Below, piece after piece: positions 1 to 63,937 of a stretch of 64,000 nucleotides of DNA (positions are counted from its first letter, which is position 1; every line of letters starts with the position of its first letter). Position numbers and translations under genes: made by a program. This DNA is from a virus (Duplodnaviria; Heunggongvirae; Uroviricota; Caudoviricetes): the IMG/VR virus record IMGVR_UViG_3300021400_000141, positions 64,001-128,000 of that record; one strand, 5' to 3'. The notes below the pieces were generated by a model. It made no database searches. It was not told the DNA's origin and was given only the letters and a program-made list of their open reading frames with translations.

Positions 1-654
1 CTCGGACTGAGCAAAAATCAGGTCGATGCAATCGGAAAGATAACCAATGCTTGCATGGAAAGCGTCATGGATGAAACCTCAGAACCCCGTTATGTTTCCC
101 ACCTATTTCAGGGCGAGGATGAGCGCAACGATATTGAGCGCATGATAGATGCTGACGGAAACATCGACAATGTGGTAGCCGAATACGGCTTCCTTTTGGA
201 CCCGAGCAACCCTGACAACGTCACGGAAGGAGTTCCATACATCTTGGACGGGTCCGACACCATTATCGGAACAAGCGGCCCGTACACCCTTGCATACAAC
301 GGAAAAATGGCGGGTTCATATCTGCTGTACAAGAAACTTGATGATGACAGTTCAACAACAAATGCTTGCATGGAAGGTGTAGGCGATGGCGTCGATACCC
401 AAGATATCGACCCTAATATGAACGAGCTAGATGAGCACACGGACACTCCTCCCGAAACAGTTGACGGCACAGAGGAGGATGAGGAGCATGAACTTACCAT
501 GGACGAAATGTACGACAAGCTCATTGAACAAGGCGTTTCAAAGCAGACTATCAACATAGTCACCGACATTATCGGATGGAATCCTGATTCAATGCTAAAA
601 ATTCTGGACGCTGCAACTGGATACAAATCATTTGACCAGCTGCCAGAGTTCTAA
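1..654 (+). CDS. Acidic hypothetical protein, 5'-truncated by window edge; carries the shared N-terminal leader motif
   Basis: Frame is open from base 1 (LGLSKNQVDAIGKITNACMES...); D/E-rich; followed by a terminator hairpin. Confidence 0.7.
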   Translation, partial: LGLSKNQVDAIGKITNACMESVMDETSEPRYVSHLFQGEDERNDIERMIDADGNIDNVVAEYGFLLDPSNPDNVTEGVPYILDGSDTIIGTSGPYTLAYNGKMAGSYLLYKKLDDDSSTTNACMEGVGDGVDTQDIDPNMNELDEHTDTPPETVDGTEEDEEHELTMDEMYDKLIEQGVSKQTINIVTDIIGWNPDSMLKILDAATGYKSFDQLPEF

Positions 655-673
655 CTCAATCATAACAGTGTGT

Positions 674-707
674 AAAAAAGGCTTCCAACATTTTGTTGGA
701 AGCTTTT
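674..707. terminator. Bidirectional intrinsic terminator
   Basis: GCTTCCAACA-ttt-TGTTGGAAGC stem (681-703) with an A-tract before and a T-tract after, between convergent genes. Confidence 0.85.
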
Positions 708-718
708 CCTTTTTGTGC

Positions 719-1078
719 TTAATCCTCTGGTTCATCTGGGAATGGCATCCAGTGCGTCACGCTGTCCGTCTGGATGAGGTTCTCCTTGTGGAACATCCAT
801 CCGTAGCGGGTGCTCCAATACCCGATTCCGATGCCGTATAGTTTGCTGTACAGGATGCACCATGTGTTGTCGCCGACATTGTCGAGACCAGATGCCTTCC
901 TCCATACTGGCAATCCCTTCTTGATATTCTCGTTTTCGATGCGGAGCCGTTTGACTTCCTCCTGCAGTGCAAAGATGTCCAAGAACGGCACACGCACGCC
1001 TTTCATCGGGGGAGGTGCAGGGGAAGCCTTCTTCGGCTTCTTCAATGGTTTACACTTGTTCGGTGCGTTTGTCGTCAT
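719..1078 (-). CDS. DUF551-like phage protein
   Basis: C-terminal VTHWMPFPDEP motif typical of DUF551; start at MTTNAP after GGAG. Confidence 0.65.
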   Translation of the reverse strand: MTTNAPNKCKPLKKPKKASPAPPPMKGVRVPFLDIFALQEEVKRLRIENENIKKGLPVWRKASGLDNVGDNTWCILYSKLYGIGIGYWSTRYGWMFHKENLIQTDSVTHWMPFPDEPED

Positions 1079-1079
1079 T

Positions 1080-1610
1080 TTAGTCTCCTTGCGGTACAGC
1101 ACCAACTTTATGTTCACGTACGCACTTTGCGACAAACTCGTCTAGCTGCTTGTAACTCGGGTTGTGAATTTCCTCGATGATTGCCTTTGAGGCATTACCG
1201 CCATGAATTGTCTTGACAAGTCTCGCCCCGACCACGTATTCGTAATGCTGATGATGGGGTGATGCCACTACGTCGGTGTTCATGACGATACGTATCCTGT
1301 AATCCTGTGCACCCCATGTAATGAAAACATCGGTGTCACGGGAAAGCAACCCGTACTTGTCAGCGATATCCTTCACCTCGGGAAGACGGAGTTCTTCCAC
1401 GATGACATAGCGGGGTTCATAGCCATTCTTGTCAGCGTCAAGGTTCAACTTATGCGATTTGCAGAACGACTCTGCTTCCTCCTTGGTCGGGAAGGCAATA
1501 GCCTTGCTTCCGTCACTGAACCATCCGAGACCCTCAGAATCCATACCCAAGCAGTAATGAGTGTCGCTACACAGTAAAGGCCCCGTGCAGCTTCTTTCGA
1601 TATAGAACAT
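1080..1610 (-). CDS. Hypothetical protein
   Basis: 176-aa ORF with AAGGAG RBS, in the minus-strand gene run. Confidence 0.7.
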   Translation of the reverse strand: MFYIERSCTGPLLCSDTHYCLGMDSEGLGWFSDGSKAIAFPTKEEAESFCKSHKLNLDADKNGYEPRYVIVEELRLPEVKDIADKYGLLSRDTDVFITWGAQDYRIRIVMNTDVVASPHHQHYEYVVGARLVKTIHGGNASKAIIEEIHNPSYKQLDEFVAKCVREHKVGAVPQGD

Positions 1611-1684
1611 TGTGATAATCTCCTTATGAATTATTTACATGGCCTGTTTCATAGCCTGTTTCATGGCCTACAGGCGACATTAAT

Positions 1685-1951
1685 CTAGCACCTGTGCATG
1701 CCGAGCTTGAATCGGAAATGTTCAACGATGTCGATTTCCTTGCCGTCCTTGTCGAAGAAATCGAAGTTGCACGAGTTGTATGCGTGCTCTTGGTCTCCTA
1801 CCAGGATTGTCTGGGTGTAACTTCCGTGGATAACCACGTAGTCAACCACGTATTCCTTACCGACGGTCAAGTCCTTGGGGTCGTCAGTCCTTCCCCAATG
1901 GTTGTACTCGTTGCTGGTGCAAACTGCCTTGATGGATTTTTCTCTCTCCAT
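1685..1951 (-). CDS. Hypothetical phage protein
   Basis: Start at MEREKSIKAV after a GGGG RBS; LTVGKEY motif common in small phage proteins. Confidence 0.65.
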   Translation of the reverse strand: MEREKSIKAVCTSNEYNHWGRTDDPKDLTVGKEYVVDYVVIHGSYTQTILVGDQEHAYNSCNFDFFDKDGKEIDIVEHFRFKLGMHRC

Positions 1952-1961
1952 AGTGACCCCC

Positions 1962-2432
1962 TTAGATTCCGAACCGAGTGTTGAGGGCTTCGATGCGCCT
2001 ACGTTCTTCCGCCAGTGCCACGGTAAAACGCTCGACATCCTTCTTCGCCTTGGCCAGACTCGTGGACAACTCTGATACCCATCTCCGGTGGCGCTTCCGT
2101 AGTTTCCTGGCGGCTTCCTTGTATGCGGCCTTTGTGCAACGGGTAATTGTATGACTGAACATACCGTCACAAGTGCATTCTCTGTCATTGAGGTCACCCT
2201 TGCACAGCCTGAGCGTATGAGTGTTGACAACACCTTCCGTATTGTTTACGTCGAGATAGTCCGTAAATGTAACCTTGATATATCCAGACGACTTTTCCCT
2301 GGTTACTCTCTTGACGACAGCAACCACGAGCCCAACTACTCCCCCAGCACGGTCCCTGGTCACCATCTTGACCGTCCATCCAGGCTGGAGGTCGCCGAAG
2401 TTCTCAATCGCAGTATTTTTCATTGTTGGCAT
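1962..2432 (-). CDS. Hypothetical protein with C-terminal coiled coil
   Basis: 156-aa ORF directly downstream of a sigma70-like promoter. Confidence 0.7.
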   Translation of the reverse strand: MPTMKNTAIENFGDLQPGWTVKMVTRDRAGGVVGLVVAVVKRVTREKSSGYIKVTFTDYLDVNNTEGVVNTHTLRLCKGDLNDRECTCDGMFSHTITRCTKAAYKEAARKLRKRHRRWVSELSTSLAKAKKDVERFTVALAEERRRIEALNTRFGI

Positions 2433-2461
2433 CCTTTGTATGTTTGTATGTTCCTGCTTAA

Positions 2462-2490
2462 AATATAGATAATAAAATTGTGTCTGTCAA
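2462..2490 (-). promoter_or_regulatory. Sigma70-like early promoter
   Basis: TTGACA-17 bp-TATATT on the minus strand. Confidence 0.8.
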
Positions 2491-2493
2491 GCC

Positions 2494-2772
2494 CTATTTG
2501 TAGCGAATCTTCAAAATTGTGAGGACTGCGGTCAGAATCGTGGCGATTCCGTAATTGAAATAGATTGGATACTGCCACAGCCCTGTCTTTATGTTCGTGT
2601 AGAATACGAACACTGCACTGAATATGTTCCCGCAGAAGGCGAAGACAAGGAACATGCGGCTGATGTCCTTGCACGACTTGGTTCGGTAGCACTTGACTAT
2701 CTGGGGGGCGAGGTTGATTGCGAAGAAGAAGGCCCCGAGGATACCCGAAAGCCAGCAAAGCGTCTCTATCAT
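2494..2772 (-). CDS. PQ-loop/SemiSWEET family small transporter
   Basis: 92 aa, three hydrophobic helices, LAPQIVKCYRTKSCKDIS PQ-loop motif. Confidence 0.8.
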   Translation of the reverse strand: MIETLCWLSGILGAFFFAINLAPQIVKCYRTKSCKDISRMFLVFAFCGNIFSAVFVFYTNIKTGLWQYPIYFNYGIATILTAVLTILKIRYK

Positions 2773-2797
2773 ATGGACTCGATTACGTTACCTTTTC

Positions 2798-2814
2798 AGT
2801 TTATAGTATAAACT
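2798..2814. promoter_or_regulatory. Back-to-back late-type promoters (TATAAACT on both strands)
   Basis: Perfect inverted repeat AGTTTATA-G-TATAAACT between divergent genes. Confidence 0.7.
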
Positions 2815-2846
2815 ACAATATAGCAATATCTAAGGAGAAATCAAAT

Positions 2847-3287
2847 ATGTCAGCCTTCCTTGATGAACTTTTGAAGAAAATGAAGACCGCACCCCATGTA
2901 GGCATCCCGTCCGTTACAAACCCTAGGCTTCCGACCAAGGTTGAAAGAGATACCGCCGAGTATGCTGCTAGACAAAAGGCAATGCCTAACTTCAAGTTCG
3001 GAAACGGCCACCCAAGTCCTATATATGCAGACCCGAAGTTCAGGAGGCCCGAACTGTTCATTCAGAACACTGTTCTCACCAAGGACGAACGAGAAAAGTT
3101 CGAAGACAAGTATCAAGCCTACGCAAAAAAGTTGAAAGCGGAAACTGCAAAAAAGAAAAAAGAAGCCGAACAGGATGAATTCGAGTCTCAATACCAAGCA
3201 TACGCCAAGAAATTGAGAGAAGAAAATGCTCAAATGAACCAAGATGTCAAAGCATCTACAGACGGTAAGAAACAGGCGGAAGTATAA
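2847..3287 (+). CDS. Hypothetical protein with internal duplicated helix (FEDKYQAYAKKL / FESQYQAYAKKL)
   Basis: AAGGAG RBS before ATG 2847; stop overlaps next start (TAATG). Confidence 0.75.
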   Translation: MSAFLDELLKKMKTAPHVGIPSVTNPRLPTKVERDTAEYAARQKAMPNFKFGNGHPSPIYADPKFRRPELFIQNTVLTKDEREKFEDKYQAYAKKLKAETAKKKKEAEQDEFESQYQAYAKKLREENAQMNQDVKASTDGKKQAEV

Positions 3288-3949
3288 TGAAAATTTATGT
3301 GGTTGGCAGCACAAAGAACAAGTTCCTGCCGCTTGACAAGATAAGGACAAAGTTCTTTATCGATAAACCTCATGTCGGTGACAACATCGACTTTCTTAAC
3401 CCATGGTATTGTGAACTTACTGGATTGTACCACCTGTGGAAACATGTGGAGGACGACATCGTAGGATTGGAACATTATCGTAGATATTTCGTTAACTCTC
3501 ATGACAAGATATTGTCGGAGGGAGAGATAAACGAAATGTTGAAAACATGTGACATTATCTGCACCAAGGCACATTACAGCAAGGAACGCCCAGTTATAAC
3601 ATGGCTCAACGAGCATGGCAAACGCAAGGACTTTGATAAATATCTGTACATCCTATGCAGATACTTTGATGATATCGGGGACAAGAAGTACCACGGTTTC
3701 GGAGAATGGTGCAAGAAGTATCTTTTTGGTGACCACCACTGTCTTGGTAACATGTTCGTGTGCAAACGGGCTCTGATTGAGGAGTATTGCCTATGGTTGT
3801 TCAACGTATTGAGCGTATACGACCAAGTCAACGGCCTATCAGACGCCAACAGAAGGATTGACGGATATCTGGCAGAGTTCCTGTTCGGAGCATGGCTGGA
3901 ATGGAACAAGAAGAAGATTAAATATCAACAAATCAGAATAGTAAGGTAG
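3287..3949 (+). CDS. DUF4422-family putative glycosyltransferase
   Basis: DNIDFLNPWYCELTGLYHLWK, VGLEHYRRYF, NMFVCK and RIDGYLAE motifs. Confidence 0.85.
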   Translation: MKIYVVGSTKNKFLPLDKIRTKFFIDKPHVGDNIDFLNPWYCELTGLYHLWKHVEDDIVGLEHYRRYFVNSHDKILSEGEINEMLKTCDIICTKAHYSKERPVITWLNEHGKRKDFDKYLYILCRYFDDIGDKKYHGFGEWCKKYLFGDHHCLGNMFVCKRALIEEYCLWLFNVLSVYDQVNGLSDANRRIDGYLAEFLFGAWLEWNKKKIKYQQIRIVR

Positions 3950-3953
3950 GAAG

Positions 3954-4754
3954 ATGGTTAAGGACAAAAATACACTAATAGTCAGCATGACTTCATGGCC
4001 GAAGCGAATCAAGTATTGTTCAAGGGTGTTCTTTTCCATCATGGAAAGTGATTGTCCGAAGGACAAGTATCATCTGGTTCTTGTCCTGTGTGAAAAGGAA
4101 TTTCCGAACAAGGAAGCAGACCTTCCAGAAGTCTTGCGGCTGATGATTGAAAATGGAGATATCGAACTGATATGGCACCCTACAAATATATTCAGCCACA
4201 AGAAACTGATGCCAGTATTGAAGAAATACCCAGATAACCCTATTTTGGTATGTGACGACGACATAATTCGTCCGAAACATTGGCTACCAGCCTTCTTGAA
4301 AGACCATGCTGAACACCCTGATGAAATCATCGTTGGCGGATGCGTGTTCGACATCAGTTTCGACGGAAATGTGTTGAACCCAGTTAAACGCTTCAGGTTT
4401 GACCCTCCTTCATGTGCAGGCAAAATTGTGAAAGGAGCTCGACCAGCAAACGGGTTCGGTGGCGTCCTTTATCCAGCACATACCTTCACCGACCCAAGGT
4501 TCTTCGACGAAAATCTGTTCATGGAACTTTCGGCATATTCGGATGAAAGCTGGCAGTATTGTTTCAGCATCATGTATAACAAGACGATGAGATGGCTGTC
4601 TGTATACATTCCGCACCAACATGGTCAACAAGATGGAACATACGAGTGTTCTATGTCAAAGCTAAGAAAACCCAAGGATTCTTATGTCAATATATACAAC
4701 AAGTTGTTGAACTATTTTCCTGAGTTCAAGGCTAATATGAAGAACTATGTTTAG
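3954..4754 (+). CDS. GT-A fold glycosyltransferase
   Basis: IVSMTSWPKRI, SHKKL, ILVCDDD (DxD) and GGVLYP motifs. Confidence 0.8.
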   Translation: MVKDKNTLIVSMTSWPKRIKYCSRVFFSIMESDCPKDKYHLVLVLCEKEFPNKEADLPEVLRLMIENGDIELIWHPTNIFSHKKLMPVLKKYPDNPILVCDDDIIRPKHWLPAFLKDHAEHPDEIIVGGCVFDISFDGNVLNPVKRFRFDPPSCAGKIVKGARPANGFGGVLYPAHTFTDPRFFDENLFMELSAYSDESWQYCFSIMYNKTMRWLSVYIPHQHGQQDGTYECSMSKLRKPKDSYVNIYNKLLNYFPEFKANMKNYV

Positions 4755-4766
4755 AGCGGAGGTAAT

Positions 4767-5612: not shown

Positions 5613-5615
5613 TAT

Positions 5616-6206: not shown

Positions 6207-6215
6207 TATTAATTT

Positions 6216-6485: not shown

Positions 6486-6504
6486 CACAGCACCTCCATA
6501 GGTA

Positions 6505-7259: not shown

Positions 7260-7281
7260 TATTCCGCCTACATGTATGCAT

Positions 7282-8172: not shown

Positions 8173-8180
8173 GTGTATAT

Positions 8181-20316: not shown

Positions 20317-21138
20317 TTACACGTCTAGGCTGCTTCTGCGGTTGGACTGGAACTGTTCCTTAACAGCCTTTCCGTAAGCATCTTCCAGAATCTTGTGGCA
20401 AATCATCTTGATTTCTTCAACGTCGTCAGTGTCGCTTGAAGCAATGTAGTCGCCGTCATACATGGTTCCGAGCTTCATGTAGAGTCTCGGGCCTCCATAT
20501 ACGCAGTAGTCAACACGGGACGAGTCTGGGTCCTTGACGACGATAAGGTGGATTCTCCATCCACCAATGACCATCTTGGCCATACCACCCATGTATTCAG
20601 GCATAGAGCTGGAAGCGATGTGTCCGCAAAGCCATCCAAGGTGGTCTTTCATGAACTTCTTGGTCTTCGGGTAATCGTCGAACATGTGCTTTTCGGGGTC
20701 GTCAATCTCTGGCCCGACGAGGTAGTTCATCTGGTAATCGCCGCTGAACGGAAGCCTGTAACGGCTCTTGCGGGTGAACTCGTGACGAATACGCTTAGAG
20801 AACTGATACAGAGGGTCATCAGCGTACTGTTCGTCGTCCTTTTCTTCCTGTGATTTAATCGGGATGTATCCGCCGATTGGCTTGTCGTGGGTAGGGCCGT
20901 CAATTTCCTTGACTTCAACCTTATTGTCATCCCGTCTCAACGGGGATTCCCACGCCTGCTTCAACGTGTCTATATCGCAAGCCATAGGGTCCTTGTAGAA
21001 CCCGTTCTCGTCAATGCACGGGTTCATTTTATCCTCGTCCTCGAAACACGTGTCGTGGAGCTTGGATACCATGTCCCGCATCGCCCATGGCAGGCCCGCC
21101 TTTGCGAGCTGTTCTTCAAAAAGTGCCTTCCTGTTCAT
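20317..21138 (-). CDS. Late-expressed hypothetical protein with shared N-terminal leader
   Basis: MNRKALFEEQLAKAGLPWAMRDMVSKLHDTCFE; TATAAACT 6 nt upstream of ATG. Confidence 0.75.
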   Translation of the reverse strand: MNRKALFEEQLAKAGLPWAMRDMVSKLHDTCFEDEDKMNPCIDENGFYKDPMACDIDTLKQAWESPLRRDDNKVEVKEIDGPTHDKPIGGYIPIKSQEEKDDEQYADDPLYQFSKRIRHEFTRKSRYRLPFSGDYQMNYLVGPEIDDPEKHMFDDYPKTKKFMKDHLGWLCGHIASSSMPEYMGGMAKMVIGGWRIHLIVVKDPDSSRVDYCVYGGPRLYMKLGTMYDGDYIASSDTDDVEEIKMICHKILEDAYGKAVKEQFQSNRRSSLDV

Positions 21139-21144: not shown

Positions 21145-21152
21145 AGTTTATA
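21145..21152 (-). promoter_or_regulatory. Late-type promoter TATAAACT (likely leaderless transcript)
   Basis: TATAAACT-gttcgt-ATG, no RBS. Confidence 0.6.
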
Positions 21153-21153
21153 A

Positions 21154-38858: not shown

Positions 38859-38886
38859 AGTTTATGCCTACACACGCCTATAAACT
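38859..38886. promoter_or_regulatory. Divergent late-type promoters
   Basis: CATAAACT (minus, 38859-38866) toward patatin and TATAAACT (plus, 38879-38886) toward SprT. Confidence 0.6.
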
Positions 38887-38911: not shown

Positions 38912-39736
38912 ATGAAGAATGAAAGGGTGATGTTTACGCCGACCATCGACTGGATGGGGAAGGCATATGACAAGTTTAACGCCATGTTCTTTAAGGGGAA
39001 GCTGCCCGACGACATTGAGTTCGGTTTTGTAAACGCCAAGACGTTCGGTGGAGACGCAAGGTACTGGAAGAACAAACGCCGCACCAGGGAATGCACGATG
39101 AAGAACCATGATTGGTACGTCGGTACGTTCAGGATAAGAATGTCCACCTTCTACAACAACATTACGAAACACGAGGCCGAACTGATACTCCTTCACGAGA
39201 TGATTCACATCTACCAGTTCTCGCAGGTGAAGTTCAGTGAGTGGAACGGAAGCGGAATACGTGGTTGCCACGGATACACTTTCACCGAATGGATTGACCG
39301 AATTAAGAAAATGAGCAATGGAAAGTACGTAGTCAACATCTATTGCAACGAGGGTGGATTCCCTACACACAAGTTTACCGATGAGGACTACATCAAGGCT
39401 CTTAAATACCACAGGGGAGAATTCGCACTGGTCATCATGCCGAAAGAACCAGACCCGACCGACAAGTACCTTGTTTGGTACAAGATATTCAAGAACAAGG
39501 ATTTGTGTGGAAAATCCATCCTTCGTGTGATGAAGAACTACGAAAACTCAAAGGTTTTATCTATATTTAAGCCAGGTCCAAACATCAAGGAGTACACCAC
39601 ATCGTTCTGGGAAGACCCGAGACACTCTGGTGTGGACTCTGGAGAATGGCAGGTAGGCGATTACAGCAAGCTGCTCAAGATGAGCAACAAGGGGGTTATA
39701 ACCATGAAAGGTTTCCCAAAGGAGAATAAAAAATGA
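38912..39736 (+). CDS. SprT-like zinc metalloprotease
   Basis: YDKFNAMFFKGKLP, LLHEMIH (HExxH), HGYTF. Confidence 0.85.
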   Translation: MKNERVMFTPTIDWMGKAYDKFNAMFFKGKLPDDIEFGFVNAKTFGGDARYWKNKRRTRECTMKNHDWYVGTFRIRMSTFYNNITKHEAELILLHEMIHIYQFSQVKFSEWNGSGIRGCHGYTFTEWIDRIKKMSNGKYVVNIYCNEGGFPTHKFTDEDYIKALKYHRGEFALVIMPKEPDPTDKYLVWYKIFKNKDLCGKSILRVMKNYENSKVLSIFKPGPNIKEYTTSFWEDPRHSGVDSGEWQVGDYSKLLKMSNKGVITMKGFPKENKK

Positions 39737-39999
39737 AACGCAATTTTTTGGAAGCAGTTCAGAACTCTCCAGAACTAGACGACCTAGACAAAGAGGCAAT
39801 AAGCGACCTGTACAACACTGTCTTCGGTGACAATACCCCAGATGCCAAACTTGTTGACACCGCTACGGAAGAACCACCCACTCTTGCCGAGTTCGAAAAC
39901 CTAGGTGAACACCAAGGCGACGACATCAGTGTAACAGAACAGGGTCTGAAATTAACCCAGACCCTTCCTGATGGAACAGATGTAACTACAATTAAGTGA
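39733..39999 (+). CDS. Small acidic protein with shared N-terminal leader
   Basis: MKRNFLEAVQNSPELDDLDKEAISDLYNTVF. Confidence 0.65.
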   Translation: MKRNFLEAVQNSPELDDLDKEAISDLYNTVFGDNTPDAKLVDTATEEPPTLAEFENLGEHQGDDISVTEQGLKLTQTLPDGTDVTTIK

Positions 40000-40000: not shown

Positions 40001-40921
40001 CTATCTAGCCAATGTGATTCTTTCTACATTTCCCTTGTCACGGATGAACGGGTCCTTTCCGACCTCATCGTGAATCATGGCACGAGCTTCTTCTGGAAGT
40101 TCCTCTTCTTCTCCGTCATCTGCTGGAGCCTCATCGACAACGCCGACTGCGGCACCAGTTTGTGGATAGAATTCTTCCTCGCCAGGTTCAGGCGTAATCG
40201 GAATATCTTCATCGCCGTCACCAGGTTCACTCTCTCCATAGCACATCTCGTATTCCGAAATAGAGTCAAGGATTTCCTCGTCGGTCGGAGGAACATCCTT
40301 CAACTCTTCCTTAACATTGTCTGGGAATTTTTCCTCTTCTCCAGGAAGAGCTTGCTGCATTATGGATGCCCACTCGGCAATAAGAGGTGCTAGTTCAGGG
40401 ATTGCGTCACATTCGTTGCAGGTTCCCTTTCCGCTTGCGAGGTCGCTCAGGTAGTCGATTGGCGTGCGTCCAGTGATATCGGGGATGTCCCATACGCTGG
40501 CCTGACACATCTCGTCGTCCTCGCTCGTCTTGTACTCGAACACAAGCGGGTTTTCAAGCAACTTCTTCAAAAAGTCGAAATTTATTTGCTCGGTAGTCTT
40601 TCCAATAGCGTACTCGACCATGTTCATAAGAACGGTATCGCCGACAGAGTTCTTCGCACCGAGGTAAATCGGATTGATGTTGAGCAAGTCCTCAACCCCG
40701 TTGTCAGCCCATTCGTGGAGCTGCGTCGTCCAACGTCCGTCTGGAAGAACCTTCTTCATCATGAACTGTGCTGGGTTCTGGTAGAGGGCAAGGAGGTTCT
40801 CCCGTGAAATCGAAGGAACGTCACGGTTGAACGCACGCTGAATACCCTCGATTAGTACCAACTTGTCGGGATATACGTCTTTGAGCTTGTTCAGCTCATA
40901 GTTAAATCCTCTCTTATCCAT
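40001..40921 (-). CDS. Acidic protein with ankyrin-like motifs
   Basis: TQLHEWA, NSVGDTVLM and DITGRTPIDY resemble ankyrin repeats; E-rich tail. Confidence 0.6.
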   Translation of the reverse strand: MDKRGFNYELNKLKDVYPDKLVLIEGIQRAFNRDVPSISRENLLALYQNPAQFMMKKVLPDGRWTTQLHEWADNGVEDLLNINPIYLGAKNSVGDTVLMNMVEYAIGKTTEQINFDFLKKLLENPLVFEYKTSEDDEMCQASVWDIPDITGRTPIDYLSDLASGKGTCNECDAIPELAPLIAEWASIMQQALPGEEEKFPDNVKEELKDVPPTDEEILDSISEYEMCYGESEPGDGDEDIPITPEPGEEEFYPQTGAAVGVVDEAPADDGEEEELPEEARAMIHDEVGKDPFIRDKGNVERITLAR

Positions 40922-40932: not shown

Positions 40933-41259
40933 TTACTTGCTGAAAAACATATTCGCAGCATCCATGTATTCGGGAACGGTAAGGCCATTCTTGTCGGCTT
41001 CCGCCTGGATATCAGTGTTCTCCTCGCCAACTGCTTCGGTAAGACCATTGTCGCACTCGCAGATACCGTCCTTGCATTCGCAGTTTCCACCTTCGCAGTT
41101 TCCACCTTCGCAGCCATCGTCGTCTTCAACATCAACTTCGGCGTCCATCTGGGACTCGAAATAGAGCTTGTGCAGCTTGTTGATAGCCTCGAACTGTGCC
41201 TGGGAAGGGCAAATCGTGTGCAGGTAGCTCTCGAACAAATCATTAGCTTTCATCTTCAT
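40933..41259 (-). CDS. Small acidic Cys-rich protein with shared N-terminal leader
   Basis: LFESYL...AQFEAINKLHKLYFES, then GCEGGNCEGGNCECKDGICEC. Confidence 0.7.
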   Translation of the reverse strand: MKMKANDLFESYLHTICPSQAQFEAINKLHKLYFESQMDAEVDVEDDDGCEGGNCEGGNCECKDGICECDNGLTEAVGEENTDIQAEADKNGLTVPEYMDAANMFFSK

Positions 41260-41289: not shown

Positions 41290-41297
41290 AGTTTATA
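41290..41297 (-). promoter_or_regulatory. Late-type promoter TATAAACT
   Basis: Exact motif upstream of the 41259 start. Confidence 0.65.
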
Positions 41298-46982: not shown

Positions 46983-47014
46983 TTATGATGAGTAATGACC
47001 AATATGAGGGTATT

Positions 47015-50000
47015 ATGGCTAGAAAAGGTAGTCCAGGTGTTGCCATCAAGATTGAAGACCGTTCAGGTTATTCTTTCATTGAGAACCCCGCTCTAATCGG
47101 CGGTGTCGTTGGCTACTCCCCTAAGGGCGAATTCAACAAAATCCTGAAAATTACCAATACGGCAAATCAGGATTCTATCCTTGGCCTCGGGTTCAACCAG
47201 GCCAAGTGGAACATGGGTATGTATGCTACCCGTGCCGTACTCAATAACGGCGGTCACGTCCACTTTGTGCGTCCTTACGGCGAACAGGTGGAAAAGACGG
47301 ACGTTCGTAAGTCTGACTTGAAGTCCGATGCATTTGTCGTGTCTTTCGACCGCAATGCGTCCAAGGTTGACTACTACGACAAGTCCCGTACTGCCGAAGA
47401 GAACGAAACCGACGTGGTGCATACTTCTTTCGACATCCGCCACTTTGCGGCTACCCGCTACATTGCGGACGGCTTTGCAGGCTTCGGCGGTAAGCGTAAG
47501 ATTAACACCATTCAGGAAACTATCGCGGAAAACTCCAACGTGGACTTCCAGTTGACCGCTGGAGAAGAGTTCAACGACGAAGGTAAGCCGTCTGACGTGC
47601 GTTCCGACACCAACGTGGTGCTGTTCGCTATCGTCAACAGCGACCCGACCGCCGCAAAGCGTGCTGCCGACCGTTACACGGCAACGGTACGCAAGAACAG
47701 CGACTCTGGCAACAAGAGGCTGGTGACGCTCGTTTGCGACTCTGTCCCCGCATTCAACGTAGGCGACGTTATCTACTTCCCTGCTTCCAACTTCGTTGAG
47801 AGCGAGAAGGGTGTGTACGCTACTGTCAACAAGATTTTGGACACTCAGGTTGTCGCCGAGTACGAAACCGAGATGGACAACGTCCCGACGATGGTGACCA
47901 AGAACGCAACGTTCTTCTGCAACAACGACGATGCCACGACTGGCGTTGACTACCTCGAAGTCAAGACCGCAGTTGCAAACCGTGCTGTCAAGAAGTACGG
48001 CGAGATTAACTACGTCAAGACGAACGGAAAGGTGGACTTCTCCAAGGTCAGAATGGGCGACGCCATCCTGTTGAGAGAACCTGATAGCAATGCGAAGATT
48101 ACACGTATTCTCGGTCTCACAACGGATGAAGAAGTCACTCCTGAAAATTTCGATGCTGCTAGGAAGAATTTCACGTTCAGTCCGAAAAAGGCTGTTCTCG
48201 AAGCTGGCGACAGTGTTACGTTCTACTACGACGTGAAGACTGTTGTTGACGAAGAAGAGGTGACAACCACAAAGAGCATCAAGGGTACAGTTGAGTCCGT
48301 TACAGTTGACAACGTAGTAACGGTAGTGCTTGATAATGCTCTTGAAAGTGCAGCAACGTTGCCGTTCAAGTATTATGAACTGACTTCCGTAGGAAAGGAA
48401 AGTTGCGATGCATCTGCAAAGATTGTAACGCTTAACGTAAATTCCAACCGCCCGAATGTGTTGAACCCAGTTGACACAACCGACCTTAAATTGGACGAGA
48501 CAAATCAAGCCAAGCTTGTTGCCGAGTTCGAAGATAAGGAAGGTGCCACTCCGACGGCAAAGGATAAGGCCAAAGCGCTCATGGATTCAATCAATGGTGA
48601 AGACTCCGTTGTAGCAACATTCAGCTCTGACGGAACATTTACCGTTGAGTCGTATGACCCAGGTGATGAGGACGAAGGTACGCCTGCAACTGCAACAGGT
48701 ACATTGACGTTCGATAAAAAGCTGAGCGACAATGCAATCATCAAATGTGATAAGGGTGAACTGACGAAGGGTTCTGATGGAAGGTGGACATTGACTTACA
48801 CCGATAAGCCAGAAACTGACCCTGTCGAAGGTGACACTGAAAGTGTAACTGGTACAGACACGGAAGAATACCTTGCTGTCAACGTCTCTGGCCCGACCAA
48901 GGTCACTAAGGATGTTCCGACAGAGAAGACTGCCGAAGCCGTAAAATTTACGGTTGAAAGTTATAACTCTGAAACCTTCACTGCAAAAGGAACTGTCAAT
49001 GTTCCTGATGATTTCCCAAAAGCTTCCTATACAGTTGTTGTTGATGAGGTTAGCCTGACGTTGGCTCCATCCACCACAGAAGAAGGCAAGTGGACCTTGG
49101 CCTATCCTGAGGAACCGTCAACGGAACCGACACCTGAAGAAGAAATCGCTTGTGGGGATATCGATTACACGGCTAATGTCCCGACGGACTACTACGTGGT
49201 TTCTCTCGTGTTCCCTGAAAAGCTTCCTTACATGCCATCTGAGCTCAACACTCGTGGTATGGTTGATGTCGGTACTGTATCGGCAGGCGACATTATCAAG
49301 CTTGACACAGCGGGCGAAAAGGAATACTACGTTACCAATGTGACTGGTTCTGGTGCAGTAACCATCACTGAAAAGAATGGTGATGAAGTAGATGGAAACA
49401 CTTCTCTTGGCAGCAAGGTTATCAACCTCACTGCTACGACAAAGAACATCCTCGCTGCGTTCAACCGTGAAGGTTTCGCAATCAACACCTATCTTGGAAA
49501 CAATGTAACTCAGATTACCGACCCGTCCGACAAGACGAAGTACAACACGACGACCACAATCGGCGTGCAAGTGCCTTTCGGAACTGCCACTCAGTACGGA
49601 GTTGGTGACCTTGTTGCATTCGTCCCACAGAAGACGAACAAGAAGGATGACAGCGAAATCATCTTCGGTAAGAACGATATCTACGTTGTCAAGAACATCA
49701 ACACGTTCAAGGACATCGTGATACTCAGCCACACTGGTGACATCGTGTTCGATAAGGAAACTGGAAAGGCTGACAAGTTCGGTGACTACAGCACATGGAA
49801 GCTGGTTGACCTTACCGCATCCAACGCCAACATCTGGACGGCTGGAAAGGACGGTCTGACGTTCTACATGCTCGGTGCTTACGACCTGACTGTTCCATCG
49901 AATGTTCAGGAAGAAGACTTCCTCGTTGTTGGTGAAAAGGAAGGTGAATATGACCTGCTCAAATTCGCCTACACGACATACAACGGTGGTGTAGTCCAGC

Positions 50001-51403
50001 GTACCGACAAGCTCCTTGTGAGCGACGACGTTGGTGCTTCGTTCAACGCAATGGGTCTTGCCTCTGTGAAGTACGAAGATGTGAACTTCAATGGCGTTGC
50101 AAAGCAGGTGTACGTGCTTTCTTCGGAAGGCGAGGCCATCGCAAGGATGTACCTCTACATCACCTACCACTTCAACGGCAAGTCTTACGATATGGAAGGA
50201 ACCATTGTTCCTTACGTCCACGACGATGGAAACCTCTTCATTGGTGACATGGCCGACTCTGTTCTCACGGACAGCGGTGCAAGGCTTCTCATCAACGACA
50301 GCGGCATCCTCGACAACTTCTTGACGAACAACGCTTACGACATGTCTCAGAGCGTTGAAAACGGACACCTCGACTCTGTTTCCACGATGCTCTCGTACGA
50401 TGAACGCGACCCCGCAATCATCAACGACGCTATCTGGGAATACACGCCGGCCAACAACAGCGACACGGCAACTCTGGCCAACGCTTGGAACCTCTTCCTC
50501 GACAAGGACGGTACTGACGTGTCTATGCTCATCGGTGCTGGTACGGGTATCAACAACCTGTTCAAGAAGAACCGTGAAACTCTCGACGGAACGGTTATTT
50601 CCGCTATCCTTAACGTCTGCGAACTCCGTAAGGACTGCTTTGCCATCCTTGACGGCGTAGGCGAAGCCAACATCGAAACGACCCTCAGGAAGATGATTGG
50701 CTCTCAGGGATTTGGTGTTAAGGGCCGCTGGGGTGCCATCTACGATGGTCGCGGTATCTTCTTCGACAGCTACTACACTCTCATGAACGTAGAAGTCGTG
50801 AAGTCCGTACAGTTGGCATCCATCATCACGGCTAACGCTGCCAACGGAATTTGGTGGTTGCCGCCTGCTGGTGAAATCAACGCTGTAATTCCGACGGAAT
50901 GGGGCGTAACCGAAAAGTATCCGAGAACCTTCAAGTATCCTGAAGACACGGATTCCAACATTGCACGTCTTACTGAAATCAGGGTCAACCCGACTCGTTT
51001 CAACAGCCGTGGAATGTTCATCTGGGGTGACTTCACGATGCAGAAGGAAAGTTCTGCGTTCGACCAGATTCATGTGGCTATGCTCTTGGCTGGTATTCAC
51101 AAGATGTTCTATCACTACCTCGATAGAAAGGTCTTCCAGTTGAATACGACCAACCTGCGTACCAACATTCAGTCGGACTTGCAGGCTCAACTTGATGCAA
51201 TCATGAACGCTAACCCGGCTGGTTTGTACTCAGGTACGGCAATCTGCGATGACACGAACAACACGCCTGACGTAATCGACAGGAACGAGCTGCACGTTGA
51301 CCTTCGCTTGAAGCCGACCAAGACCTCTCGCTGGATTACATTGAGGACTATTGTTGAATCCAATGGTTCTAGCAACACTCAGACCACTTCACTTTATGTG
51401 TAA
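47015..51403 (+). CDS. Contractile tail sheath protein (T4 gp18-like) with large inserted domains
   Basis: SPGVAIKIEDRS N-terminus, RKDCFAILD, WWLPPAG, VNP, WGDFT, FDQIHV, CDDTNNTPDVIDRNEL...LKP C-terminus. Confidence 0.93.
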   Translation: MARKGSPGVAIKIEDRSGYSFIENPALIGGVVGYSPKGEFNKILKITNTANQDSILGLGFNQAKWNMGMYATRAVLNNGGHVHFVRPYGEQVEKTDVRKSDLKSDAFVVSFDRNASKVDYYDKSRTAEENETDVVHTSFDIRHFAATRYIADGFAGFGGKRKINTIQETIAENSNVDFQLTAGEEFNDEGKPSDVRSDTNVVLFAIVNSDPTAAKRAADRYTATVRKNSDSGNKRLVTLVCDSVPAFNVGDVIYFPASNFVESEKGVYATVNKILDTQVVAEYETEMDNVPTMVTKNATFFCNNDDATTGVDYLEVKTAVANRAVKKYGEINYVKTNGKVDFSKVRMGDAILLREPDSNAKITRILGLTTDEEVTPENFDAARKNFTFSPKKAVLEAGDSVTFYYDVKTVVDEEEVTTTKSIKGTVESVTVDNVVTVVLDNALESAATLPFKYYELTSVGKESCDASAKIVTLNVNSNRPNVLNPVDTTDLKLDETNQAKLVAEFEDKEGATPTAKDKAKALMDSINGEDSVVATFSSDGTFTVESYDPGDEDEGTPATATGTLTFDKKLSDNAIIKCDKGELTKGSDGRWTLTYTDKPETDPVEGDTESVTGTDTEEYLAVNVSGPTKVTKDVPTEKTAEAVKFTVESYNSETFTAKGTVNVPDDFPKASYTVVVDEVSLTLAPSTTEEGKWTLAYPEEPSTEPTPEEEIACGDIDYTANVPTDYYVVSLVFPEKLPYMPSELNTRGMVDVGTVSAGDIIKLDTAGEKEYYVTNVTGSGAVTITEKNGDEVDGNTSLGSKVINLTATTKNILAAFNREGFAINTYLGNNVTQITDPSDKTKYNTTTTIGVQVPFGTATQYGVGDLVAFVPQKTNKKDDSEIIFGKNDIYVVKNINTFKDIVILSHTGDIVFDKETGKADKFGDYSTWKLVDLTASNANIWTAGKDGLTFYMLGAYDLTVPSNVQEEDFLVVGEKEGEYDLLKFAYTTYNGGVVQRTDKLLVSDDVGASFNAMGLASVKYEDVNFNGVAKQVYVLSSEGEAIARMYLYITYHFNGKSYDMEGTIVPYVHDDGNLFIGDMADSVLTDSGARLLINDSGILDNFLTNNAYDMSQSVENGHLDSVSTMLSYDERDPAIINDAIWEYTPANNSDTATLANAWNLFLDKDGTDVSMLIGAGTGINNLFKKNRETLDGTVISAILNVCELRKDCFAILDGVGEANIETTLRKMIGSQGFGVKGRWGAIYDGRGIFFDSYYTLMNVEVVKSVQLASIITANAANGIWWLPPAGEINAVIPTEWGVTEKYPRTFKYPEDTDSNIARLTEIRVNPTRFNSRGMFIWGDFTMQKESSAFDQIHVAMLLAGIHKMFYHYLDRKVFQLNTTNLRTNIQSDLQAQLDAIMNANPAGLYSGTAICDDTNNTPDVIDRNELHVDLRLKPTKTSRWITLRTIVESNGSSNTQTTSLYV

Positions 51404-55835: not shown

Positions 55836-55836
55836 A

Positions 55837-56886: not shown

Positions 56887-56887
56887 T

Positions 56888-58846: not shown

Positions 58847-58850
58847 ATAA

Positions 58851-59660: not shown

Positions 59661-60420
59661 GGGTTCCTCCTGTTGTTAAATGCTTGGCGCTCCATTCAAG
59701 TCTTATTTTCCTACGCATGCGGGTTAGTAAAAGAATCGCCCTTTCCTTGCTGCAGTTATGAGCTTCCGCATAGATGTCGGTGGCATGTTTGGGCGATTCT
59801 GTCGTGACAAGGTAGCCATACATGTCCTGCATCTCTGGAGTAAGGGTCTCATACATCTTTGATGCGAATTGAAGTTTCCCCTGAGAGTCTGCGTCGAACG
59901 GTTCTATCGAATGCAGGTATTCAATCACTTCGCCGTCCTTCCCAGTCTTCGTGGTTTCGACGTACGATAGCGTCACCTTCTTGGATGGGTTGACATACAC
60001 CAGTGCGTCCTCTGATATGAACTTCTTGATGTATCCGTGAAGGCACAGCACCATGTACGAGTTGAAAGATGCACCACCCTCGGGGTTGAAATTAGACACC
60101 AACGTACCGAAGTGCACATACGGGAGATGCACAAGGTCGTTGGCGTCCAGTGAATATTGCTTAGCGTAATTGTTGTATAGTCTGATAAGATAAAGCGAGT
60201 AATTGCCGATTACGATGTCTCGATATGTGTTGTACAGGCGCCTGCTGTTTGGGTCTTCGCTACTCAGTAGCTTCTTGCACAGACCGACTATGGAATTGAT
60301 TAGGTCGCCAGTATTCTCCACATTCATTTTTGTTTTTAACACGCTTATGTATGTTTGTGATTTGTTATATGAGTCGGATAATACTTTTTTATCTACATAC
60401 ACCACTTCCTTCTTTATCAT
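59635..60420 (-). CDS. Divergent sigma70-family RNA polymerase sigma factor-like protein
   Basis: RDIVIGNY...DLVH...FNPEGGASFNSYMVLCLHGYI resembles region 2; C-terminal helix pair resembles region 4. Confidence 0.6.
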   Translation of the reverse strand: MIKKEVVYVDKKVLSDSYNKSQTYISVLKTKMNVENTGDLINSIVGLCKKLLSSEDPNSRRLYNTYRDIVIGNYSLYLIRLYNNYAKQYSLDANDLVHLPYVHFGTLVSNFNPEGGASFNSYMVLCLHGYIKKFISEDALVYVNPSKKVTLSYVETTKTGKDGEVIEYLHSIEPFDADSQGKLQFASKMYETLTPEMQDMYGYLVTTESPKHATDIYAEAHNCSKERAILLLTRMRRKIRLEWSAKHLTTGGTHELCKRQA

Positions 60421-60505
60421 AGTTCCTCATGGCAGGAAAGGCAGCTAGTCTATTTATCCAGAATTTTTGCATATATGTGTACCCTTCCTTTCTTGTTTGT
60501 AAGGA

Positions 60506-60534
60506 AATATAATACATTTCAGATACACTTGCAA
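60506..60534 (-). promoter_or_regulatory. Sigma70-like promoter
   Basis: TTGCAA-17 bp-TATATT upstream of the sigma-like operon. Confidence 0.55.
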
Positions 60535-60712
60535 GAGTTTTGTACACAAAAAATTAAAGTCGGGAATTTCCCGACTTCTCTTGTATTTCTTCTTTGTTTC
60601 GACCACTCGGCATCGCAGTTTCCGACCGTTCTCGGTCTCTGCTATCCGCAGCTTCCTGGCATAGGGTGTCTCCTTAGCTTCGTTTATTTTTAGGTATATT
60701 GGTTTCATGGTT

Positions 60713-61105
60713 TTATCCTTGTAGGATGCAGTCTTTAAGTAGACTCATTGCCTGTGCCACGTCAGCATCCATCGGTTCTGACGGGGCTGTTGAAACGGAC
60801 GTGTTTGTGCCGCTAGGAGTGCTTACGCTACTCTTCGTGATAGTTCCTGCAGGAGTAGATACGCTGGTAGTATCAATTTCCTTGTAATCCTGTTCAGTCA
60901 GCGGCTGGAACTCGTAGCTGTGATTCTGCTTGAACTTTTCTATCGTAGCAAGGATGTCGTTGTAGCCATAGCCAGGAGCGTTGATTGCACGACGGTTGAA
61001 CTCCCCTATAACATCACGTTCCTTATAGAGGTTTTCGTTGTGGTCGCTGTAACCGATTACGTTACCACCGACTATCATGCTCGGCAATGCGCTCTCAACT
61101 CCCAT
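60713..61105 (-). CDS. Hypothetical protein with S/T-rich repeat linker
   Basis: TSVSTPAGT / SSVSTPSGT / TSVSTAPS repeats; TATAAACT upstream. Confidence 0.7.
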   Translation of the reverse strand: MGVESALPSMIVGGNVIGYSDHNENLYKERDVIGEFNRRAINAPGYGYNDILATIEKFKQNHSYEFQPLTEQDYKEIDTTSVSTPAGTITKSSVSTPSGTNTSVSTAPSEPMDADVAQAMSLLKDCILQG

Positions 61106-61153
61106 AATATCATCCTACATGTCGGTTCCCATAAACCCACCTTAATCAAATCT

Positions 61154-61161
61154 AGTTTATA
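61154..61161 (-). promoter_or_regulatory. Late-type promoter TATAAACT
   Basis: Exact motif upstream of the 61105 start. Confidence 0.6.
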
Positions 61162-61612
61162 CTGTCTCCCATGAATCAGTGGCTTCAATGGCATCGTCAA
61201 CGAAGTTGCCAGCCTTCTTCATGTCGTAGATGTCCCTGCGTACCTTGTCCTCAAACTGCTTGAATGTCTGGTCGAGGATTTTGCTCATGCCAGCACCATC
61301 AACATTGTTCAGAGTGTATTCAGCGGAAATCGGCTTCCCATTATAGGTATTCGCAGTTGAGATAAAAACCTTCGTCTCGCTCATGAAAGGAACAACATCG
61401 GACGCATCAGCGATAAGCTCGTCCATGTTTCCGTGGAGAGTTGTTCTGATTTCCGTGTTCCAACCCATGTACGGCATAAGAAACCTTACCATAACGGCGG
61501 TCTCATTAAGTTCCTTCATCATGAGTTGACCTTGTGTGGGCTCAGTCCAAAAAAGGAATGTGAAAAATTCCTTCAACTTGGACACGAGGGTTGCTTTTGT
61601 CTCGCTTGTCAT
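61157..61612 (-). CDS. Hypothetical protein
   Basis: Start MTSETKATL with AAGGAAGG RBS. Confidence 0.65.
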   Translation of the reverse strand: MTSETKATLVSKLKEFFTFLFWTEPTQGQLMMKELNETAVMVRFLMPYMGWNTEIRTTLHGNMDELIADASDVVPFMSETKVFISTANTYNGKPISAEYTLNNVDGAGMSKILDQTFKQFEDKVRRDIYDMKKAGNFVDDAIEATDSWETV

Positions 61613-61623
61613 AAAACCTTCCT

Positions 61624-61863
61624 TTACAAGAACTGCCTCAGATACGGATTGGCACAAATGACCGCAACGGAAAGCTTCTTGTTGTGGAGCTTAACCGTCT
61701 GGCGGTGCCTGACACGTTTCTTTTTCACGGAAGGTGTGGCCTGCTGCTCCTTGCCATCAGTCACCACCTGCTTGGGAGGTTCTGGAATGACAGGGGCTTC
61801 CTTTACGATTGGCCTATCTTCCTGAACGGAAACGGGTTCCGTATTTCTATGTCTTCTTGTCAT
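61624..61863 (-). CDS. Small basic hypothetical protein
   Basis: AGGAGG RBS; 79 aa. Confidence 0.55.
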   Translation of the reverse strand: MTRRHRNTEPVSVQEDRPIVKEAPVIPEPPKQVVTDGKEQQATPSVKKKRVRHRQTVKLHNKKLSVAVICANPYLRQFL

Positions 61864-61906
61864 GTCGTCCTCCTAATTTAGATAAAAAACTCACGACCGT
61901 CAAGTT

Positions 61907-62707
61907 TTAGTTAGATAAGTCAGTCATCATGAACGGCCTTGCTGCCTCGTTCTTGATTTCTTCGAGCTTCTTATCGTTGATTTCTTTCCAAGTGGTATAG
62001 ATTGTCTGTCCGTTCACAGTACCACCACCAGGAAGAGTGACCGTGTCCTTCATGAGAATGATGCCGAGCTGCATACCAGCCCTAGACACCACGAAGTCCC
62101 TGAACAGCGGGTTGGCAAACACTTCTGCCTGCTTAGCCTTCAAGTAAACCCTAGCGATTGCATTCCTATCCGTTTTCGGAGTAGGATAGACACGCATGCG
62201 GTGTTCAACGGGGTGCAGCTTGACGCTGTACTGCGTACCAACAATCTTCTTAACGTCTTGTAGATATCTCAGTGCGCCCGTATACGTGATAAGGTCGAAC
62301 TGCCCCAGTCCGCCAAGACCAGCACCGCCAACACCCATCAGGGATTCGCCAGGGCCCACATCCCATGCCATCATCGGGCTAAACGTGTTTCCGTAGCTCG
62401 GGTTCAGGTCAACCAACTGATACACATTGTCGGGAACCTTGTATTCGATAATTCCCTGCTTCAGATGGATAATCATGTAGTCGCTGTAAGTCGCTTCGGA
62501 CTGCATGTAGCGGTAGAAGTAGTCGAGCGAGTCCTGAATGGCCATGGCGATATGACCAAGACCGTTTCTGTTCTCGACTTCCATCTCGATTTCTGTGGCC
62601 GGATAGCCCAGCCTAGCCTTGATGTACTCGGTGACATCATCACGAGTCATCAGCATTGTTGGCAGCGGGTCTGGCGGCAAGTTGAAAATTTCAGGGTTCC
62701 TACGCAT
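61907..62707 (-). CDS. Neck/head-completion protein (T4 gp13-like)
   Basis: YIKARLGYP, IQDSLDYF and TLPGGGTVNGQTIY motifs typical of gp13. Confidence 0.82.
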   Translation of the reverse strand: MRRNPEIFNLPPDPLPTMLMTRDDVTEYIKARLGYPATEIEMEVENRNGLGHIAMAIQDSLDYFYRYMQSEATYSDYMIIHLKQGIIEYKVPDNVYQLVDLNPSYGNTFSPMMAWDVGPGESLMGVGGAGLGGLGQFDLITYTGALRYLQDVKKIVGTQYSVKLHPVEHRMRVYPTPKTDRNAIARVYLKAKQAEVFANPLFRDFVVSRAGMQLGIILMKDTVTLPGGGTVNGQTIYTTWKEINDKKLEEIKNEAARPFMMTDLSN

Positions 62708-63231
62708 TATGCAATCTTCCTCTCTGGGAACCTAGAATAGATTTCCTGGTCACCCGTCTTCAATGTGATGTTGAACAGTGGCTTACCCGTTCTGTTGGAA
62801 GTAACGTTTATTCGGCCCTTCATTCCACCGTCGGGAGTATGAGATATTCCAATGCTGAAATCCTTGGTCGAATTGATTTGTTCAGAGGTGATGCCAAACT
62901 GCGGCGTGTAGTACATATCAAGGTTAGCCAAGATAAATTCCTTCAACGCCTGCTTGGACTCGAACTTCTGTAGCCTTCCGTTCATCAACTCCTGGTGCAA
63001 CCAATATGTGTATCGGTTGACTAGATGCGGAGTGCGGTTATAGATGTCCTCAATTCCCCTGAACGTGAAAAACATCTGCGGGTGCTCTGGACTGTAGTAG
63101 ATAAAGTTAGCCTCTGGGTGCTTGAAACATTCCTCGAACAATGCAGACACAACGGCTGATTGGGCTTCGGTCAGCCCAAGCTTGTCGATGTTCTCATAGA
63201 ACAATGCCGCTTTGTCAAGACTATCAGTCAT
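62707..63231 (-). CDS. Hypothetical protein with shared N-terminal leader
   Basis: LFYENIDKLGLTEAQSAVVSALFEECF. Confidence 0.7.
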   Translation of the reverse strand: MTDSLDKAALFYENIDKLGLTEAQSAVVSALFEECFKHPEANFIYYSPEHPQMFFTFRGIEDIYNRTPHLVNRYTYWLHQELMNGRLQKFESKQALKEFILANLDMYYTPQFGITSEQINSTKDFSIGISHTPDGGMKGRINVTSNRTGKPLFNITLKTGDQEIYSRFPERKIA

Positions 63232-63244
63232 AGTTACCCGTAAA

Positions 63245-63937
63245 TTAAACGTCATTGTTTTCAAAGAAACGGATGAGGTGATACTTAATTCCAGTCAACT
63301 CGTCGATGAAACCGTCGAGCGTACCGTTAAGTCCGAATGTCTCGAAATGTTCAAGCTGAGAACGGAACTCAGAAATCTTATCGAGGTCTTCATCGACCGA
63401 TGCGAGGAACGCACCCTTGTCGGTCAGGTTAGGAATCTTTCCAGACCATACCTTGAAATCGATGTTCTCGTTATAAGTAGCCTGCAATGTTTCGGCCACC
63501 TTGTCCTTGGTTTCCTGGTAGAGTTCGTAGCATTCCTGTGCCTTCTCGTGCAGGGACTTGCTTTCAGCGTTCCAGTGGTATTGCTGGTATGCGTTCTGCT
63601 TGGCGTTCATGAGCGTCAAGAGGTTGTACATTATAGCCTTTGCACCTTCGTCGGCATTCGGTTCATTGGCGGCTTCGGACGGGGTTTCCTCAGGTTCAAG
63701 ATTCTCGGGAACTTCTTCCTCGGGTGCATTGAGCTCTTCTTCGCCAGCATCAACGCCGTCATCACCTTCGTCCTTTTCTTCCTTCTCGTCCGACTCCTCT
63801 TTATTATCGTCATCGTCATCCGAGTCGTTTTCGGCTGCCTCGTAGATGGCGTTGTGGATAGCAGCCACCGCATCAATAGTGTCTGGGTCAATGCCAGCTT
63901 GCTGCATTGATTCCACGAAAATTTTGTACGGATTCAT
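63245..63937 (-). CDS. Ferritin/Dps-like four-helix protein with shared leader and acidic linker
   Basis: YHWNAESKSLHEKAQECYE...DKVAE resembles the Dps ferroxidase motif; GAGGAG RBS. Confidence 0.65.
   Translation of the reverse strand: MNPYKIFVESMQQAGIDPDTIDAVAAIHNAIYEAAENDSDDDDDNKEESDEKEEKDEGDDGVDAGEEELNAPEEEVPENLEPEETPSEAANEPNADEGAKAIMYNLLTLMNAKQNAYQQYHWNAESKSLHEKAQECYELYQETKDKVAETLQATYNENIDFKVWSGKIPNLTDKGAFLASVDEDLDKISEFRSQLEHFETFGLNGTLDGFIDELTGIKYHLIRFFENNDV

Follow-up and report, generated by a model that had tools for sequence, protein, structure and literature searches.

A portable helical leader on unrelated, presumably late proteins of a jumbo phage with a T4-type head, a probable capsid-targeting propeptide

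In phage T4, the internal proteins IPI, IPII, and IPIII as well as Alt carry at their N-terminus a capsid-targeting sequence (CTS) that is removed by the prohead protease gp21 (PMC9026906, PMC5694885, PMC3012670, PMC9958956). According to the cited accounts, a CTS of 10 residues suffices for the packaging of foreign proteins and gp21 cuts after L/I-X-E (PMC9026906), the protease is active only inside the prohead, and how proteins are chosen for the T4 scaffold core is called an unresolved matter (PMC9958956). For the phiKZ-like phage SPN3US, long propeptides that are cut by gp245 at A-X-E have been reported for the ejection proteins gp47, gp53, and gp54 (PMC5694885). Here we describe a leader of 33 residues on presumably late proteins encoded in a 64,000-nucleotide stretch of the viral record IMGVR_UViG_3300021400_000141 (positions 64001-128000 of the record, in the following "the window"). 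The record represents a complete virus of 419,423 bases with terminal repeats; its genome, G000, has 583 genes, and the g numbers used here are from our own gene caller. By analogy with T4, we consider it probable that the leader is a long, folded capsid-targeting propeptide that is removed by gp21 and that has spread as a promoter-plus-leader cassette.

Like the T4 CTS, the leader is one tag common to the N-termini of unrelated, variable, and presumably late proteins of a phage with gp20, gp21, gp22, and gp23, and it ends in a hydrophobic-x-Glu site. In its first ten residues, a Phe around position 7 and a Glu at 8-10 recall the CTS of IPII and IPIII. Unlike the T4 CTS, which has 10-20 residues and occurs on four proteins, the leader comprises 33 residues with two predicted helices and two Glu sites, is found on 24 carriers, also occurs internally, and has a cargo that includes peptidoglycan enzymes and proteins of up to 1346 residues. 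The leader profile scored below 0 bits on T4 IPI and IPII and reported nothing for IPIII. Most plausibly, the leader works like the T4 CTS, yet length and sequence set it apart from the CTS proper. Features in common with SPN3US, as far as the cited source describes it, are a propeptide of greater length with multiple cut sites (predicted ones in the leader), a genome of jumbo size, and many inner-head proteins, and a hydrophobic segment just behind the propeptide, as in SPN3US gp47, is also found in g221 and g249. However, the SPN3US propeptides mostly exceed 100 residues, are common to paralogs only, and belong to a head for which the same source gives no confirmed gp22 (PMC5694885), whereas here one short module is attached to bodies without homology to each other, and the head is of the T4 type.

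Detection of the leader and its predicted fold

The first-pass annotation of the window had proposed a common N-terminal leader on seven proteins. All seven open reading frames (ORFs) are present where they had been placed, and six of the copies hold, with leave-one-out scores of 28.2, 33.8, 5.5, 9.2, 16.6, and 17.4 bits that were equalled by 0, 0, 4, 0, 0, and 0 of 2885 shuffled N-termini, respectively. The ORF at 40001-40921, which had been regarded as a weak copy, fails: it scored -4.1 bits, as did or surpassed 1767 of the 2885 shuffles, and the profile from the 63-row alignment A2, to which the leaders of relatives had been added, reported no domain. A model built from the six copies and scanned against the rest of the genome was significant on held-out genes, as 16 of 577 other N-termini reached at least 10 bits, whereas 100 shuffled sets gave 0.03 on average and never more than 1. 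One of these 16, the 48-residue ORF g511 at genome position 381655, was dropped; it had 6.1 bits in the iterated model and was too short to enter the self-trained rescoring of the genome. The candidates g241, g242, g360, and g310, with at most 2.5 bits, were not counted as diverged carriers. In the self-trained model, the leader is N-terminal or nearly so in 23 carriers, which scored 26.5-58.6 bits, with the next ORF at 6.5 bits; one internal copy brings the total in G000 to 24 carriers. Among 20 non-carriers scored with the leader profile, 15 had 3.0 bits or less and five had no domain; the sheath, portal, adaptor, gp21, and gp22-like proteins were below 0 bits, and the gp67-like protein was at 3.0 bits. 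The shell, tail, and core proteins that were scored are therefore without the leader.

The consensus of the leader is [LI]-F-x-E-S-I-x-K-L-G-L-S-x-x-Q-x-E-A-V-x-x-L-x-x-x-C-F-E-[ASG], and it is loose, with a mean column identity of 31%. This looseness, and the fact that one of the seven annotated copies was a chance match, would fit amphipathic N-termini that resemble each other by chance, or simple paralogy. We give this explanation practically no credit, as it is refuted by the held-out and leave-one-out tests, as the bodies of the carriers are otherwise unrelated (no BLAST pair among the 24), and as the leader is matched 25 times in the related genome G001 (capsid protein 95% identical) and 15 times in G002 (88%).

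The AlphaFold model of the leader has helices at residues 2-12 and 18-31 with a mean pLDDT of 85, and the leader is therefore predicted to fold as a helical hairpin, with a conserved Phe7 and, on helix 2, an Ala/Val/Leu face. Among described domains and repeats, TPR included, Pfam families matched at most 2 of the 63 leader members at E 0.1, PHROGs families at most 2 of the 63 at E 1, no sequence in the PDB matched the leader, and Foldseek gave nothing at E 0.001 (best VIA, Z 4.8). A description of the leader or of the phage family was not found in the literature, with most subscription journals being outside the search. The leader is real and reproducible, and it appears to belong to no described sequence family.

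Presumed late units, prohead-type sites, and cargo

The earlier statement that all copies with a visible upstream region lie in units behind a late motif was confirmed in the window and largely extends to the whole genome. Fifteen of the 23 N-terminal carriers have a TATAAACT of their own, compared to 40 of the 560 other genes, and 22 of the 23 are located within a TATAAACT unit, compared to 83 of the 560 (P about 1e-16). The motif is promoter-like by its position, with 53 of 60 sites being located 3-60 nt before a called start, and it presumably resembles the T4 late promoter. This presumed likeness, together with the structural genes behind the motif, suggests that the carriers are expressed late.

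In the window, g152 (20317-21138, minus strand, 273 residues) has a body of no known family behind a leader that spans residues 1-33 (21040-21138) and ends in Glu, and a TATAAACT late-promoter-like motif is located 6 nt before its start (21145-21152, minus strand). On the plus strand, a TATAAACT motif at 38879-38886 stands at the head of a unit with a SprT-like gene (38912-39736) and g184 (39733-39999, 88 residues), whose diverged leader (39733-39828) is without terminal Glu. The minus-strand carrier g186 (40933-41259, 108 residues) has an acidic, Cys-rich body, its leader at 41155-41259, and a TATAAACT motif before it at 41290-41297 (minus strand). A further minus-strand TATAAACT motif at 63965-63972 heads the unit formed by g211 (63245-63937, 230 residues, leader at 63839-63937, minus strand), g210 (62707-63231, 174 residues, leader at 63124-63231, minus strand), and a head-tail adaptor gene (61907-62707), which g210 directly precedes. 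The g211-g210 unit is covered by gut-metagenome RNA-library contigs, some of them labelled sheep, which indicate presence only.

With respect to the genome as a whole, the TATAAACT motifs often form back-to-back divergent pairs, some of which overlap (G000 positions 139006/138953, 148126/148101, 160174/160147, 169847/169813, 294891/294894, and 317310/317276). SprT-like genes are found in the window at 38912-39736 (plus strand) and at genome positions 296465-297244 (minus strand; likeness by eye), each behind a late motif, and in both cases the gene immediately after it is a very short one with the leader (88 and 65 residues).

G000 encodes the T4-type capsid protein gp23, the prohead protease gp21 (genome 259668-260396), the portal gp20, and a large terminase. 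The gene 3' of gp21 is homologous to T4-type gp22 (hhalign profile comparison, 71%, E 4e-5), and a 59-residue gene 5' of the protease gene was named gp67-like from its position. By gene content, the prohead is of the T4 type, as gp20, gp21, gp22, and gp23 are all present. In contrast to T4 with its single head operon, G000 has its capsid and portal genes (199256) 60 kb away from the gp67-like, gp21, and gp22-like genes (259474-261352). The capsid protein has only 28-31% identity to those of cultured phages (30 best of those listed), and no cultured relative of G000 turned up in this comparison.

Hydrophobic-x-Glu-Ser/Ala sites are kept across the family in the capsid propeptides, the C-termini of the protease, and the gp67-like proteins. 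A weight matrix built only from the predicted Glu sites of the gp23, gp21, and gp67-like proteins was compared with 8178 background Glu sites; earlier hand-written site patterns, which had been composed with the leaders in view, were set aside in favor of this matrix. In the 19 of 23 leaders that have the terminal Glu, this residue ranked at a median 96th percentile of the background, reaching the 90th or higher in 14 of the 19; for the first Glu of the leader, the median was the 80th percentile, with 8 of 20 reaching the 90th or higher. The leader therefore ends in a site resembling the predicted prohead-protease-type Glu sites of the phage's own head proteins. This terminal Glu is E33 in g152, E35 in g186, and E33 in g211, and the predicted propeptide site of gp23 is E51.

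The Pfam scan of the cargo covered 19 carriers. The amidase g222 (Amidase_2), the lytic transglycosylase g249 (SLT), the Nudix enzyme g284 (NUDIX), and g252 (PG_binding_1) were over the cut-off, g380 (PG_binding_1) was under it, a SPOR domain in g90 was at the cut-off, and the remaining carriers of the 19 had no Pfam family. Membrane-like hydrophobic segments are present in g89 and g221, and the amidases g222/g353 and the Nudix proteins g284/g288 are paralog pairs with and without the leader. Several carriers, with 65, 88, 108, and 237 residues, consist of little more than the leader and an acidic or Gln/Pro-rich tail. As to the cargo types that the first-pass annotation had named, Cys-rich cargo is directly visible, and "ankyrin-like" cargo had no Pfam or PHROG match. 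Dps-like cargo comes down to sub-threshold Dps rows for g211 only, a protein with a leader, an acidic linker, and four long helices; its model has low confidence (pLDDT 52), so that g211 is only weakly ferritin/Dps-like, and a homolog search with its body returned close relatives only. The bodies had also been described as mostly acidic, which applies to four of the five N-terminal copies in the window (three of them strongly) and does not generalize, as genome-wide 7 of 23 bodies exceed a net acidity of 0.05 per residue and 8 of 23 are net basic.

Peptidoglycan enzymes and binding domains are often associated with phage tails. Their presence among the cargo could mean that the hairpin stays uncut and docks proteins outside the particle, at the capsid surface, tail, or baseplate, or loads the tail. 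Late expression would be compatible with any virion site, and g210 adjoins the head-tail adaptor gene. We nevertheless judge such docking to be unlikely, as the leader has Glu sites like those of head proteins at both of its ends, as T4 gp21, by the cited account, is active only inside the prohead (PMC9958956), and as the scored genes of the tail and baseplate region are without the leader.

The cell-wall enzymes could also suggest that the leader acts in the infected cell, as an inhibitory prodomain, a timer, a degron, a chaperone handle (e.g., for the ClpX encoded by the phage), or an export signal of lysis proteins. A basic, Gly/Ala/Leu-rich segment resembling a signal peptide is indeed found behind the leader in the g249 family, P0120, P0125, and P0132, as judged by eye and hydropathy, but overall there is no enrichment of hydrophobic segments behind the leader, with 12 of 161 compared to 28 of 288 and 57 of 385. 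The leader itself is no Sec signal peptide, with a net charge of 0 to -5 and a best 11-residue hydropathy of 0.3-1.72, and 31 non-carriers reach 2.5, which is above any leader. As, in addition, the phage could use for lysis an amidase that has no leader and has a late promoter upstream, and as clpX is without the late motif, an intracellular role appears very unlikely to us.

Like the leader, the gp22 motifs and the gp23 propeptide of T4-type phages contain helix-turn-helix stretches bounded by Glu sites, and one T4-type gp22 motif aligns with the leader over 18 columns (score 18.7, E 0.004). However, this score is barely above the best of 33 control families (17.85), and the gp22 family of G000 itself had no profile match with the leader (E 0.15). 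Two more specific origins found no support: for a copy of the gp23 propeptide, the profile comparison gave E 0.17-0.4, and in the case of the N-terminal gp22 motif, it was a different gp22 motif that matched weakly. The weak gp22 likeness, the carriers with little besides the leader, and the existence of internal and double leader copies would agree with a hairpin that serves as a core-assembly module, in which case most carriers would be scaffold fillers of the gp67/gp68 kind that end up degraded or remain in the head instead of being ejected. This is rather unlikely, considering the near-control level of the gp22 match, the at least four bodies in which Pfam places an enzyme or binding domain above the cut-off, and the SPOR domain at the cut-off.

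Internal copies and relatives

The copy at 1-654, which had been taken for an N-terminus, retains the leader motif but is not the start of a gene. It begins at residue 256 of the 486-residue ORF g106 (genome 63194-64654, plus strand), in which an upstream gene is fused to a leader-bearing gene and of which the window contains the 3' part. Residues 15-34 of the leader, its second part, are encoded at 1-60 (plus strand), and its ATG is located 42 nt before the window. This internal leader stands behind an in-frame promoter-like site and the ATG; the site is GATAAACT in G000 and a perfect TATAAACT in G001. In 19 representatives, the g106-type promoter is preserved in the form of the peptide [YD]-K-L-[LI]-G-E, following upstream parts whose lengths vary widely. 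By way of an internal start, the copy may nevertheless serve as an N-terminus.

The slot upstream of gp23 contains two non-homologous bodies with the same leader in phages whose capsid proteins are 96-100% identical. From such arrangements, we infer that promoter, start, and leader move between genes as one cassette. In a search of 1.84 billion representatives, 146 matches were obtained, of which 144 passed rescoring and 118 of these have the leader at the N-terminus; two of the 146, P0103 (LRR) and P0142 (LTXXQ), look false. Together with the carriers of G000, the database matches form 63 body clusters.

With increasing distance, the matches become few. One and two were found in records with 68-69% capsid identity and none in two short fragments with 61-62%. 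A model from five G004 N-termini, which had been picked from weak matches, nevertheless placed 11 leaders of G000 and G001 above the best of 20361 shuffles in the first round, and diverged forms of the leader therefore appear to be related. Relatives with about 69% capsid identity have an N-terminal and an internal leader copy in one protein (L131:8372-9820 and L128:5944-7290).

Proposed path of the cargo and other features of the genome

Taken together, the sequence evidence supports the initial idea of a modular helical-hairpin tag with a gp21-type Glu end on late proteins of a phage with a T4-type head. By analogy with T4, from which the docking, cleavage, and ejection steps are taken, the carriers would be made late, and the leader would dock its cargo on the prohead scaffold core of gp22 and the gp67-like protein during assembly. 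Once active, gp21 would cut after the first and the last Glu of the leader and free the cargo inside the head, from where it would be ejected together with the DNA. The host envelope could then be the target of the amidase, the transglycosylase, and the peptidoglycan-binding and hydrophobic-hairpin proteins, and the host cytoplasm the place of action of the Nudix and ferritin-like proteins.

Several points weigh against a capsid-targeting propeptide. Four of 23 leaders have no terminal Glu and 3 of 23 no first Glu, the head-protein sites behind the matrix are themselves predicted, and hydrophobic residues before Glu are favored by amphipathic helices anyway. Once composition is kept, the bodies are not depleted of cut sites (P 0.11 and 0.32). 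The leader is internal or C-terminal in 26 of the 144 rescored database matches and in an 88-residue ORF of G002, and a pure N-terminal propeptide does not predict such copies. The 1346-residue carrier is large for ejection. Three cargo bodies had no virion-annotated homolog in cultured phages, with nothing for two of them and two weak unannotated matches for the third. In five records with about 70% capsid identity, A2 gave 1, 2, 0, 4, and 1 leader matches. Finally, the comparison with G001, which speaks for the leader in that its conservation exceeds that of the following 40 residues in 17 of 22 best-hit pairs (0.70 vs 0.50), is biased toward this outcome, as the pairing included the leader.

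As a more far-reaching and doubtful idea, the leader could be a portable folded prodomain that not only packages about 24 proteins but also hides a bacterial signal peptide in some of the cargoes. The protease would expose the signal, and the cell-wall enzyme would be exported to the periplasm only after injection into the next host; the promoter-start-leader block would capture genes as a cassette, and any ORF downstream of it would become virion cargo. The signal-peptide-like segments behind the leader support this idea only as a lead.

Some features of the genome are outside the main subject. A 499-residue acidic protein (L019, genome 232876-234375) has a C-terminal run of repeated Glu-Ser sites and looks like a second scaffold or core protein, separate from the gp21-gp22 unit. 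A 1267-residue Gln/Ser/Ala-rich repeat protein (genome 39887-43690) has a late motif upstream and no leader. The tail sheath protein (window 46985-51403, plus strand) has 1472 residues, the N-terminal 870 of which had no family match, and RNA-library contigs of relatives have insertions and skips within this part. A Cas3 gene (HD and helicase) followed by three genes without Pfam match (genome 335951-340825; L248:2951-7825) is possibly a compact type I Cas set, and a simple repeat scan of G000 gave no CRISPR array. A tRNA cluster at 300239-310163 contains 36 of the 38 tRNA genes of the genome and a TROVE-domain gene. With respect to the host, the ClpX gene (genome 341320-342567) has 52-57% identity to mostly Bacteroidota proteins among the matches listed, and a Fib_succ_major match was below the cut-off.

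The tagging principle as such is already known from T4. What a folded tag of 33 residues in at least 63 diverse versions adds is a conserved surface with which the receptor could be found; the 10-residue CTS offers none. If the leader is a capsid-targeting propeptide, sequence alone would have named what an uncultured family of ruminant-gut jumbo phages injects, a new protein-packaging tag would be on offer, and cell-wall enzymes packaged in the head may aid the entry of these phages.

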